NCBI GenBank assembly: GCA_963580875.1
Contig: CAUZMC010000002.1
Location: forward strand, 6,865-70,864
Length of the DNA stretch: 64,000 nt
Source: Dehalococcoidia bacterium
Lineage (GTDB): Bacteria; Chloroflexota; Dehalococcoidia; Lucifugimonadales; UBA2985
Direction of reading: 5' to 3'
Shown: one piece after another, positions 5,761 to 45,961 of the stretch
How the letters are laid out: each line of letters opens with the position of its first letter
Numbering within the stretch: position 1 is the stretch's first letter
Translations under genes and position numbers: made by a program
The notes under the pieces: model-generated
Told to the model about the DNA's origin: nothing
What the model saw: the letters and a program-made list of their open reading frames with translations, nothing else
Databases searched by the model: none

Positions 5761-5909
5761 GATTACCTCCATGGATTTGGTCTGGTTATGTTGCATTATG
5801 AATGCCAAATTAGGCCAGGACAAGAGGTCAATTAGAAGGTAGAAAGACTTGACACTAAAGGCCTAGTTTTGTAGTCTGAGGTTCATTAAGTTAATTGATG
5901 TACCGTGTC

Positions 5910-5970
5910 AATAATATCCGATTGAAGGATGGAAAAGACTAATAATATCCGATTGAAGGATGGAAAAGAC
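5910..5970. repeat. perfect tandem direct repeat, 2 x 30 nt separated by 1 nt
   Basis: AATAATATCCGATTGAAGGATGGAAAAGAC occurs at 5910-5939 and again at 5941-5970. The repeat sits in the divergent intergenic region directly upstream of the TPP-enzyme start at 5987. Confidence 0.95.
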
Positions 5971-43646: not shown

Positions 43647-45863
43647 CTAATTGTGGTTGTCAGCGTTGTCACCGCTATGTTCCAGTAGAAGCTCCTGTCG
43701 GTGTCCCCATCTCTTTAGGAAGCGACGGAAGTTGTTCTGGCTCAGGTTCTCTCTCTTCTCATTTGGCAGATTTGTCCAAACCCGGTGCTCGTGGCGTTGC
43801 AATGGTAAAGAGCCAAGGGCCATTATTCGATAACCCATATCCAAGAAACAGAAGCTGTATTCTAGGTCAAGGTTACGGTAGAAGCGGAAATTTTCACGCA
43901 TGAGACCTACTTCGGAAAGCAGAGCTCTGCGGAAAGCAAAACAGTAGCCTTGTATGGCGTCTACTTGGCCATTGTCGATCTCATTAAAGAGATGCATGTC
44001 TCTGCTGCGGAGTCCCCATGGCCCGGCTAGGCCTACCGATTCGTCTGATAGAGTCTGAGACAGAGGGGTCAGGAAATCTGCTGTTGCTTCTATTGAAGTG
44101 TCCATGAGCACTATGTAGGCACCGCGGCTTTGCTTGAGCAGAATATTTTTGGCCGCTGCCTCGCCTAGTACGTGGTCTGTATGAATTACCCTAATATGGT
44201 AGTCCTGAGTTGCCTGGTCTTCCAACCAAACGGATGTGCCATCTGTAGAACCGTTGTCAACAACTAGTATCTCCAGTGTATGGTTCTCGGTTAAGGGCAA
44301 AATGCTTCTGATGCAGCGTTGTACATCTGCGATGTAGTTGCAGGCCACAATACCAACGGAGAAGTCAAGTCTGTTAGGCACATGCAGTAGCGAAGATATC
44401 TCTTTTGAGGATGAGAATTCCTTCCAGCGTTCCTGGCGTTTTTCAAGGGTGGATTTTGGGCGTATCCGTGTTCCGGAAACGTCGTCTTCCAGAATGAAGC
44501 CCTCGTTACTGAGCTGCTTTCTTAGGCTGTCGGCCGCGGAGTAGTCCTTCTGCGTCTTCAGAGTTGTCCGACTCTTTGTGGTCTCAATTACATGCTCAGG
44601 GACGCTCCACGCTTGGACTGTGCTATCTAAATTAAGGCCCAAGATGCGGTCGAACTCCAATAGAAGTCCGAGTCTGGATTTCATTGGCATATCTGCTCTA
44701 GTCATATCCCATGTCAGTCCAAGAGCGCCTGGCATATCCAAATCGTCGTTTACTCGTTGCCAGAATGTCTGTCTCCATCCTTCTGTCTCGCTGCCGCTGC
44801 TGTCTGGTGATGCCTTTAGTGACCATTCCCACACCTTGTTTCGCAGCTGTTGAAGTCCACGTTGTGCTGCTCTGAGAGCAGTAAATGTGAAGTTCAGGCG
44901 GGAACCGTATTGCACAGTGAGACAGAGATATCTGTAGGCAATTGGGTCAAATCCTTTGTCTTCAAGGTCTTTCAGTGTGTAATCATTGGCGACGGACTTG
45001 GACATCTTTACTCCGTCTACTAGGAGGTGTTGGCCATGGACCCATATTTGTACAAATGGCTTGCCGAAAGCGGCTTCGCTCTGTGCAAGTTCACCTTCGT
45101 GGTGTGGGAAGATGTTGTCTACTCCGCCCGTGTGTATATCTAACTGCTCACCAAGGTATTTGGTTGACATGGCTGAGCATTCAATGTGCCATCCTGGAAA
45201 GCCGGTACCCCAAGGGCTAGACCATTTGAGAACCCTACCAGGTTCAGTTGCCTTCCACAGCGTGAAATCTTGCTTATCACGTTTTAGCTGGTCTACCTCA
45301 GTGCGGATACCATCCAGTAACCCCTCCTGGATATTGCCAGAAAGTTTTCCGTAATCCGGGAATTTGGAAACGGAAAAGTAGACGTTACCATGCACCTCAT
45401 AGGCGTATCCCTGTTCCTCCAATTTCCGGATGATCTGTATCATCTCCTGGATGTTGTCAGTGGCTTTCGGGTAATGAGTGGCTGGAAGAATGCCTAGCTT
45501 TGCCTCATCCTTGTGGAAGGCATCTGTGTAGAACTGGGCTATCTCCTGTGGGGGTGTGCCATCTGAGATGGCTGAGGCAATGATCTTGTCCTCGCCCTCC
45601 TCAAGCATCTCCTGGCGCATGTGGCCCACATCGGTTATGTTCTTGATGTGGATGACCTGTAGTCCTTGGCTTTCCAGTGACCTGCGAATCCAGTCGGTCA
45701 TGAGGTATGTGCGAAAGTTGCCAATGTGGGCGTAGCTATAGACCGTGGGGCCGCAGCTGTACATTCGCACTAACCCCGGCTCAAGGGGGTGAAGACCCTC
45801 TATTTTTTTGGAGAGAGAGTTGGATAATTGCAAATACGTATTCCCTCTTTTCAGCATTGGCAA
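43647..45863 (-). CDS. cysS: cysteine--tRNA ligase fused to a C-terminal GT2-family (GT-A fold) glycosyltransferase domain
   Basis: 738 aa. Residues 1-470 are a full CysRS, with HIGN (46-49), C37, WHIEC (225-229), HHE (254-256), KMSKS (286-290), a DALR-like domain and the usual C-terminal helix. Residues 471-500 form a linker. Residues 501-700 are GT2-like (FSVGIVACNY, EILVVDNGSTDGT, GAYIVLMDTS, GYCFAFRRALLSEVG). Confidence 0.88.
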   Translation of the reverse strand: MPMLKRGNTYLQLSNSLSKKIEGLHPLEPGLVRMYSCGPTVYSYAHIGNFRTYLMTDWIRRSLESQGLQVIHIKNITDVGHMRQEMLEEGEDKIIASAISDGTPPQEIAQFYTDAFHKDEAKLGILPATHYPKATDNIQEMIQIIRKLEEQGYAYEVHGNVYFSVSKFPDYGKLSGNIQEGLLDGIRTEVDQLKRDKQDFTLWKATEPGRVLKWSSPWGTGFPGWHIECSAMSTKYLGEQLDIHTGGVDNIFPHHEGELAQSEAAFGKPFVQIWVHGQHLLVDGVKMSKSVANDYTLKDLEDKGFDPIAYRYLCLTVQYGSRLNFTFTALRAAQRGLQQLRNKVWEWSLKASPDSSGSETEGWRQTFWQRVNDDLDMPGALGLTWDMTRADMPMKSRLGLLLEFDRILGLNLDSTVQAWSVPEHVIETTKSRTTLKTQKDYSAADSLRKQLSNEGFILEDDVSGTRIRPKSTLEKRQERWKEFSSSKEISSLLHVPNRLDFSVGIVACNYIADVQRCIRSILPLTENHTLEILVVDNGSTDGTSVWLEDQATQDYHIRVIHTDHVLGEAAAKNILLKQSRGAYIVLMDTSIEATADFLTPLSQTLSDESVGLAGPWGLRSRDMHLFNEIDNGQVDAIQGYCFAFRRALLSEVGLMRENFRFYRNLDLEYSFCFLDMGYRIMALGSLPLQRHEHRVWTNLPNEKRENLSQNNFRRFLKRWGHRQELLLEHSGDNADNHN

Positions 45864-45961
45864 TTAGATATAATTCTAGTCCTACAGGTGTAATGCTTCA
45901 ATCCCAATCTGTTAAAATTAACTCTGTTCATTTTGGTGGATTTGTTGTAAGGAGAAATGCA

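Follow-up and report, generated by a model that had tools for sequence, protein, structure and literature searches.

What is a glycosyltransferase doing at the anticodon-binding end of a cysteinyl-tRNA synthetase? The question is raised by a gene on the minus strand of a 64,000-nucleotide (nt) stretch of DNA from a Dehalococcoidia bacterium (contig CAUZMC010000002.1, positions 6,865 to 70,864, assembly GCA_963580875.1), which was analysed at its full length and is called the window below. An initial annotation, made from the letters alone, had described a single 738-codon open reading frame (ORF) in which a complete cysteinyl-tRNA synthetase (CysRS) is fused in frame to a glycosyltransferase domain of the GT2 family with a GT-A fold, and translation, Pfam and the NCBIfam model TIGR00435 bore this out. 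Our tentative answer is that the small C-terminal domain of CysRS, which reads the anticodon and is known as CysS_C, docks the glycosyltransferase on tRNA-Cys. The protein is divided as follows, in window coordinates.

43647..45863, minus strand: whole CysRS-GT2 ORF, 738 codons plus stop, uninterrupted, with a TTG start at 45863.

44862..45791, minus strand: CysRS class-I catalytic domain, residues 25–334 (Pfam PF01406 tRNA-synt_1e, 328 bits).

44592..44861, minus strand: helical (DALR-type) anticodon-binding region, residues 335–424, placed by TIGR00435 coverage and by alignment to solved CysRS structures, and helical in the AlphaFold2 (AF2) model.

44454..44591, minus strand: small C-terminal anticodon-binding domain (CysS_C), which aligns to residues 421–459 of E. 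coli CysRS and whose positions match the published G34 contacts.

44364..44453, minus strand: structured connector, residues 471–500, with E474 and S484 invariant and S491 nearly so (76/79).

43674..44363, minus strand: GT-A/GT2 glycosyltransferase domain, residues 501–730, delimited by Pfam PF00535, AF2, Foldseek and conservation.

43650..43673, minus strand: acidic, His-containing C-terminal tail, residues 731–738 (...GDNADNHN), modelled with low confidence.

One approach to an answer was to see which part of the synthetase accompanies the GT2 domain elsewhere. An exhaustive search of 50%-identity protein representatives with the C-terminal region of the window protein returned intact fusions of 709–818 amino acids (aa) together with proteins of ~300–340 aa whose Met start falls where the small C-terminal domain of CysRS begins. 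Pfam recognised CysS_C (‘cysteinyl-tRNA ligase anticodon binding domain’) ahead of GT2 in all 15 of 15 diverse stand-alone relatives. One stand-alone CysS_C-GT2 member, WP_220194942.1, belongs to the cultured Ktedonospora formicarum. Starting the search from a high-GC member brought up at least 1,621 clusters, uniform in length (300–312 aa) and attributed by NCBI to Actinomycetota including Solirubrobacterales. The stand-alone form occurs in Actinomycetota and Ktedonobacteria (L085–L172; proteins P0129–P0411) and is abundant in soil and sediment metagenomes; like the fusions, it is annotated merely as ‘cysteine--tRNA ligase’ or ‘glycosyltransferase’. Metagenomes were scanned for such loci with a 7-sequence alignment. 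The 85 stand-alone loci (80 of them metagenomic) had a median GC content of 69% and a median ORF of 308 aa, and no CysRS catalytic domain was fused or adjacent to the gene in any of them. Motifs common to 79 fused and 138 stand-alone proteins are R516, D588-x-S-x-E, D635-A, Y-R..D666, H691-x-H693-R and S708..N711, every one of which is borne by the window protein. These comparisons show that the GT2 domain is part of a large, uncharacterised family, and that its constant companion is the domain that binds the tRNA-Cys anticodon, not the body that activates cysteine.

How the two forms are related was approached with a neighbour-joining tree, built without support values, in which the main Dehalococcoidia fusions formed one clade and a few other fused representatives fell among stand-alone forms. 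This is a hint that fusion or fission happened more than once. A protein that had appeared to consist of GT2 only (P0153) was considered as evidence that CysS_C is dispensable and was rejected, as its start lies 36 nt from a contig edge and reflects truncation. Apart from these proteins, P0144, P0177, P0199, P0213, P0244 and others are giants of 1,000–4,061 aa with 3–8 tandem GT2 domains that are 26–31% identical to the GT2 domain of the window protein.

We examined CysS_C at the positions that contact the anticodon. In the E. coli CysRS-tRNA-Cys complex (1U0B), R427 and D436 form hydrogen bonds with G34, which stacks on W432, and R423 takes part in a hydration network (PMC12684709); R427, W432, D436 and R439 are the positions that have been mutated for anticodon re-targeting of the E. 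coli enzyme (PMC13449415). By alignment, residues R432, K436, Y441, D445, R448 and D460 of the window protein are the equivalents of E. coli R423, R427, W432, D436, R439 and D451. Among the 79 fused proteins, the anticodon-contact positions of CysS_C were invariant or conservatively replaced. Conservation among the 138 stand-alone proteins was 100% at the positions of R423, R427, D436, G446 and D451; the R439 equivalent was kept in 137/138, and the W432 position was aromatic in 137/138. Because CysS_C is kept, its contact residues are conserved and the activating body is absent in the stand-alone forms, the constant partner of the GT2 domain is an anticodon reader under strong constraint.

The segment joining this reader to the glycosyltransferase had been described as a Ser/Lys/Glu-rich linker of about 30 aa. 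It does lie at nt 44364–44453, and it is not floppy: it has a fixed length and invariant residues. The spacing between position 468 and the first GT2 strand was exactly 33 residues in 79/79 fused sequences. AF2 modelled the connector with a predicted local distance difference test (pLDDT) score of ~82–88, and on the strength of that score we take it to be structured, not a flexible linker. The connector is of fixed 33-residue length, and the geometry between CysS_C and GT2 is therefore likely to be constrained. The fused protein is real, conserved and bifunctional: its CysRS and its GT-A glycosyltransferase both appear intact and are held in fixed geometry through the anticodon-binding domain.

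Is the appended domain a competent glycosyltransferase? That the C-terminal part adopts a GT-A fold had been predicted, and the prediction was upheld. Pfam Glycos_transf_2 (PF00535) matched residues 502–614 with 71.5 bits against a cut-off of 23.3, and AF2 modelled residues 425–738 (a 314-residue model) at pLDDT 92.4 and a predicted template-modelling score (pTM) of 0.82. The model of all 738 residues had pLDDT 84.2 and pTM 0.82, with low confidence confined to loops of the catalytic domain. Foldseek matched the C-terminal domain to GT-A enzymes, namely polypeptide GalNAc-transferases, PcManGT, WrtF, GalT1 and the Leptospira glycosyltransferase 6P61, with probability 1.0 to GT27 and GT2 structures and template-modelling scores of 0.5–0.62 on the query and of up to 0.79 on 6P61. 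Sequence and profile searches of the PDB matched GT2 enzymes only in their generic nucleotide-binding N-terminal half, 6P61 excepted, and none of the curated NCBIfam models covers the GT2 domain.

The motifs of the domain are D536-N-G-S, D588-T-S-x-E592, D635-A-x-Q-x-Y-C, R660-F-Y-R-N-L-D666 and H691-E-H-R694, followed by a basic C-terminal helix at 701–719. About 25 GT2 residues are invariant in the 79 fused proteins, including D536-N-G, D588, S590, E592, D635-A, Q638, Y640, C641, R646, R660-F-Y-R-N-L-D666, H691, H693, W696, S708 and N711. D588-T-S, which the initial annotation had singled out as a variant of the DxD motif, is present as part of D588-T-S-x-E592; D588, S590 and E592 are invariant or nearly so in the fused proteins, and D588 is replaced in 6/20 diverse stand-alone representatives. 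By analogy with DxH- or His-using GT-A enzymes, the invariant H691/H693 could provide a third metal ligand. From its residues, the domain is predicted to retain the usual nucleotide-sugar and metal-site positions (D536, D588-x-S-x-E592, D635, D666 and H691/H693). Short His/Asp-rich tails such as that of the window protein are common at the C-termini of the family, for example in P0001, P0004, P0129, P0149, P0158 and P0161 (...HDDDHDHHDH, ...HHHHAHH), and P0146 has a long His-rich tail. They could be candidate metal-binding tails.

With an apparently competent enzyme tied to an anticodon reader, we tentatively favour a role for tRNA-Cys. CysS_C would dock the glycosyltransferase onto the GCA anticodon of tRNA-Cys, and a sugar from a nucleotide-sugar would be transferred to a site on tRNA-Cys near the anticodon stem-loop, or the activity would at least be gated by tRNA-Cys binding. 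In the fused form, a single anticodon-binding domain and binding event would serve both aminoacylation and this second reaction. A bolder proposal casts the CysS_C-GT2 module as the first RNA glycosyltransferase of bacteria, guided by the anticodon to put a sugar on tRNA-Cys; it is credible, if less likely than not. Such chemistry would be new, because tRNA-Cys (GCA) is not a queuosine tRNA and queuosine glycosylation is the sole known precedent.

Several observations weigh against a tRNA-directed role. To our knowledge, bacterial tRNA-Cys has no reported glycosylated nucleoside; our literature searches turned up none. The neighbourhoods of the fused and stand-alone genes offered no tRNA-modification context. 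The canonical Asp is absent at the D536 or D588 position in 4–7 of 20 diverse stand-alone representatives, and a minority of relatives appear to do without CysS_C. The GT2 domain is also net acidic (mean –9) and gives no sign of a large RNA-binding surface, which counts weakly. As a test for RNA binding, net charge was in fact discarded, the GT2 domain (–9) and the tRNA-binding catalytic domain of CysRS (–8) being equally acidic.

The same data bear on a plainer explanation, in which the domain is an ordinary glycosyltransferase for a sugar polymer, a glycolipid or a small molecule, with an acceptor unrelated to tRNA. CysS_C would then be a cap, an oligomerisation surface or a sensor, perhaps of tRNA-Cys abundance, and the CysRS fusion a moonlighting appendage. 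GT2 enzymes mostly act on envelope glycans or lipids, and the sequence matches of the domain are generic GT2 enzymes (GalT1, chondroitin and heparosan synthases, TagF, PcManGT and DPMS). The acidity of the domain, which ends in an amphipathic basic helix of the membrane-interface kind, would suit this explanation, as would the members apparently without CysS_C and a single ManC-type sugar-nucleotidyltransferase gene 250 nt upstream of the Ktedonospora stand-alone gene. Yet the near-perfect conservation of anticodon contacts in the 138 stand-alone proteins is hard to square with a purely structural cap, and the fixed connector implies a constrained inter-domain geometry. Moreover, the window protein has no transmembrane segment, and no envelope-biosynthesis operon is conserved around either the fused or the stand-alone form. 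We consider an ordinary glycosyltransferase of this kind rather unlikely.

All of this presupposes that the fusion is real. Two adjacent genes could have been merged by a chimeric assembly, a frameshift or the loss of a stop codon, and several relatives are indeed called as two genes. The initial annotation had proposed searching related genomes for the fusion. We scanned one genome per GTDB species, found 447 stretches that encode relatives of the GT2 domain, and analysed the best 80 loci, all from Dehalococcoidia or Chloroflexota metagenome-assembled genomes (MAGs; SAR202-type). A single-frame ORF spanned CysRS and GT2 in 78 of these 80 species-level loci, at 54–86% identity; of the two exceptions, one was ended by a contig edge and the other was frameshifted. 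When the databases were searched with the full protein, 120/120 top matches were fusions of 700–994 aa, many on megabase contigs, labelled by their sources merely as cysteinyl-tRNA synthetase or cysteine--tRNA ligase, with SAR202 cluster among the source labels. A protein identical to that of the window was found on 16 contigs. GC content is even over the CysRS/GT2 junction. A search with the C-terminal 299 aa had returned only partial or split proteins of at most 520 aa; the absence of full fusions there was an effect of candidate sampling, as the full-length search gave intact fusions only.

The split gene calls were traced to individual lesions. Four relatives on long contigs (L001–L004) are called as two genes, and tblastn located a –1 base at residue 420/421 in L001 (about 6007), a +1 base at residue 279/280 in L002 (about 5915–5917) and a frame change across an insertion in L003 (5912–6178). 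The scaffold at the L004 locus (5848–5965) contains a run of 10 N, and a fifth split call, L077, arises from a single frame change at about 5887–5893. The splits sit at differing positions inside the CysRS body and none falls at the domain boundary, and two of the contigs bear names suggesting low-coverage long-read assemblies. The concern that a stop codon had been lost, or an assembly join made, between the domains was set aside by the 78/80 conservation, and since the fusion is conserved across independent genomes and top database clusters we regard an artefact as practically refuted. Pairwise distances in the catalytic part and in the GT2 part were correlated (r = 0.91; Mantel 0/999), so the two halves co-evolve, which fits an old, vertically inherited fusion. 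The ORF is a genuine, vertically inherited gene and not an assembly artefact.

Some variation in the fused genes was recorded along the way. The split calls seed protein databases with spurious ‘glycosyltransferase, partial’ fragments. The insertion in L003 (protein P0058), ~265 nt long, falls in the helical anticodon-binding region of CysRS and codes for an acidic stretch with many Asp, Glu, Ser and Ala residues. Fused proteins P0437 (994 aa), P0137 (802 aa) and P0143 (818 aa) extend 60–260 residues beyond the usual 725–745 aa. A 1,325-aa ORF at L062, considered as a pyruvate kinase-CysRS-GT2 triple fusion, was rejected as an out-of-frame high-GC read-through.

We then asked whether the CysRS half is still a tRNA ligase. 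The equivalog model for cysS, TIGR00435, was passed with 420.5 bits (cut-off 340) over residues 11–468, and the half aligned end to end with solved CysRS structures, including residues 2–459 of the 461 of E. coli CysRS (1LI5/1U0B). The motifs that the initial annotation had read by eye are all in place: HIGN at 46–49, C37, C229 (in WHIEC, 225–229), H254-H255-E256, KMSKS at 286–290 and the terminal helix or hairpin ending near residue 470. The zinc-ligand Glu is presumably E258 (E. coli H234+4 = E238) and not E256. E258 is invariant in the 79 fused sequences, as are C37, C229, H254, HIGN and KMSKS. The Pfam sub-models DALR_2 and CysS_C gave no match at E ≤ 0.01 on the window protein itself; CysS_C is recognised by a database flag on several fused homologues. 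No second cysS was found within the 64-kb window. By every sequence criterion that we tested, the CysRS half is a canonical tRNA ligase.

A CysRS-type enzyme beside a glycosyltransferase had also suggested a Cys-glycoside thiol of the mycothiol or bacillithiol kind, in which GT2 would build the glycoside and the CysRS body would ligate cysteine to it. This idea of the initial annotation fared poorly. It draws on the fact that MshC, the cysteine ligase of mycothiol synthesis, is a CysRS paralogue, and the window protein matches the MshC model TIGR03447 weakly. That match, at 209.9 bits, falls short of the cut-off of 485.1, while the cysS model is passed. The full anticodon-binding apparatus is kept and invariant, and the stand-alone relatives keep CysS_C without a Cys-activating domain. 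In its favour, a PIG-L/LmbE-type deacetylase gene occurs ~2–3 kb away, after a pair of ECF sigma and zinc anti-sigma genes, in 13 Actinomycetota-type stand-alone loci, and DinB_2 and EamA genes flank one stand-alone gene. The deacetylase gene, however, lies beyond a convergent FtsH gene and in a minority of loci only, and no deacetylase is conserved near the fused genes. A thiol pathway is thus a very improbable role for the protein.

The gene neighbourhoods were otherwise uninformative about a partner. No neighbour of the fused gene was conserved past phylogenetic synteny (best, 35/77 loci). At the high-GC stand-alone loci (L090–L169), the convergent FtsH gene lies immediately downstream in 61 loci and, because it is convergent, cannot be co-transcribed with the stand-alone gene. 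Beyond it, the ECF sigma, zinc anti-sigma, PIG-L/LmbE-type deacetylase and endonuclease III (Nth) genes were found in 13–18 loci, and genes for an alpha/beta hydrolase and a cNMP (cyclic nucleotide)-binding protein stand upstream of the Actinomycetota-type stand-alone gene in 22–23 loci.

One further neighbour bears on the opposite end of the tRNA. In one Chloroflexi MAG (L089, 744–2805), a gene of the FemAB family, whose members are aminoacyl-tRNA-dependent transferases, precedes the stand-alone gene on the same strand, with 29 nt between them. GT2 might act at the aminoacyl end, either glycosylating the Cys of Cys-tRNA-Cys (on S or N) or making a glycoside that is later cysteinylated from Cys-tRNA, with the synthetase channelling its Cys-tRNA to the domain in the manner of LysX (LysRS-MprF) or ErdS (AspRS-DUF2156). 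GT2 is fused to the very enzyme that produces Cys-tRNA, fusions of aminoacyl-tRNA synthetases (aaRSs) with transferases offer precedents, and GT2 S-glycosyltransferases that modify Cys exist (SunS/ThuS). Against this, the short, rigid connector would tie GT2 to the anticodon domain, at the opposite end of the tRNA from CCA as judged from 1U0B, and the stand-alone forms carry no synthetase body and do not lie beside cysS. With S-glycosyl-Cys-tRNA, Cys codons would also be at risk of misincorporation. The FemAB neighbour came up only once; like the ManC-type neighbour, it did not recur at the other stand-alone loci inspected. Action at the aminoacyl end appears improbable to us, and docking on the anticodon arm remains the reading that we carry forward.

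Around the fusion gene of the window, lipB is convergent and folP divergent. The protein identical to the window's is called in public annotations from an ATG at 45857, two codons later than the TTG, giving 736 aa. A promoter-like sequence lies just upstream of the start codon.

45873..45901, minus strand: promoter-like match TTGAAG-17-TAGAAT; such matches are no more numerous than in shuffled sequence.

On the opposite strand, the longest folP ORF, with its ATG at 45707 (plus strand), shares 157 nt with the 5' end of the cysS-GT2 ORF. Because the syntenic folP of L001 is annotated with 292 aa, folP probably begins further downstream, which would leave a very short divergent intergenic region holding the sole promoter-like match for cysS-GT2.

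The fused gene is widespread in marine Chloroflexota, and its GT2 appendage is present across a large group of Dehalococcoidia and Chloroflexota MAGs, several of them labelled SAR202 cluster. A glycosyltransferase that always accompanies an anticodon reader with frozen contact residues may represent a new bacterial tRNA-directed sugar modification, or a tRNA-Cys-gated glycosylation. If so, SAR202-type Dehalococcoidia would combine charging and glycosylation in one tRNA-binding event, and soil Actinomycetota and Ktedonobacteria would use the enzyme in free-standing form. The cultured carrier of a stand-alone gene, Ktedonospora formicarum, makes experiments feasible. Even with a non-RNA acceptor, a conserved second activity hard-wired to a housekeeping synthetase would matter for annotation and physiology.

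The initial annotation was aware of no earlier description of an aaRS-GT2 architecture. This holds for the literature: our searches turned up nothing relevant on a CysRS-GT2 architecture or on tRNA glycosylation in bacteria, and no glycosyltransferase appendage appears in the AARS Online domain catalogue. It does not hold for the databases, where the protein is common as cysteine--tRNA ligase; the sequences are abundant there under generic names, and the architecture is without description in the literature that we searched. Compared with canonical CysRS (E. coli CysS, 1LI5/1U0B), the first 470 residues of the window protein are collinear and include the HIGH and KMSKS motifs, the zinc site, the helical domain and CysS_C. 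The canonical enzyme ends within ~2 residues of window residue 468–470, whereas the window protein continues for ~268 residues of connector and GT-A/GT2 domain.

Synthetases with appended catalytic domains are rare, and the studied cases (LysX, ErdS and GluQRS-type paralogues) revealed uses of tRNA outside translation. LysX of mycobacteria and ErdS of fungi each join a housekeeping-type aaRS covalently to a second enzyme, which suggests coupling or channelling. Their appended domain is an aminoacyl-tRNA transferase of GNAT-like fold that acts on lipids and lies nearer the acceptor end, whereas that of the window protein is a GT-A glycosyltransferase attached at the anticodon-binding end. We therefore treat LysX and ErdS as an analogy only, and the window protein as not being an aaRS-aminoacyl-transferase fusion of their type. 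MshC (Cys:GlcN-Ins ligase of mycothiol synthesis; TIGR03447; 3C8Z/8HFM) couples a CysRS-type catalytic domain to glycoside chemistry and shows weak homology over window residues 11–383. MshC has no anticodon-binding domains and uses a small-molecule substrate, in contrast to the window protein, which keeps all tRNA-recognition residues and, judging from these features, is not MshC.

On the glycosyltransferase side, only one solved structure, that of an uncharacterised GT2 protein of Leptospira borgpetersenii (PDB 6P61), can be aligned with the GT2 domain in full, at 24% identity. It shares the GT-A fold and the N-terminal nucleotide-binding half with ppGalNAc-T/GT27, PcManGT, WrtF and GalT1, but neither 6P61 nor these generic GT-A enzymes have CysS_C, the RFYRNLD or RHEHR motifs, the D-x-S-x-E variant or a known link to tRNA. 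The mechanism that we propose has its nearest functional counterpart in the animal glycosyltransferases QTGAL (B3GNTL1) and QTMAN (GTDC1), which attach a hexose to a nucleoside in the anticodon loop of particular tRNAs and form the only known class of tRNA-base glycosylation (PMC11755703, PMC12518689). The likeness is at most one of mechanism: QTGAL and QTMAN are eukaryotic, act on the queuosine of tRNAs with GUN anticodons (Tyr, Asp) and carry no aaRS-derived anticodon-binding domain, whereas the window protein would find its tRNA through the anticodon reader of a synthetase.

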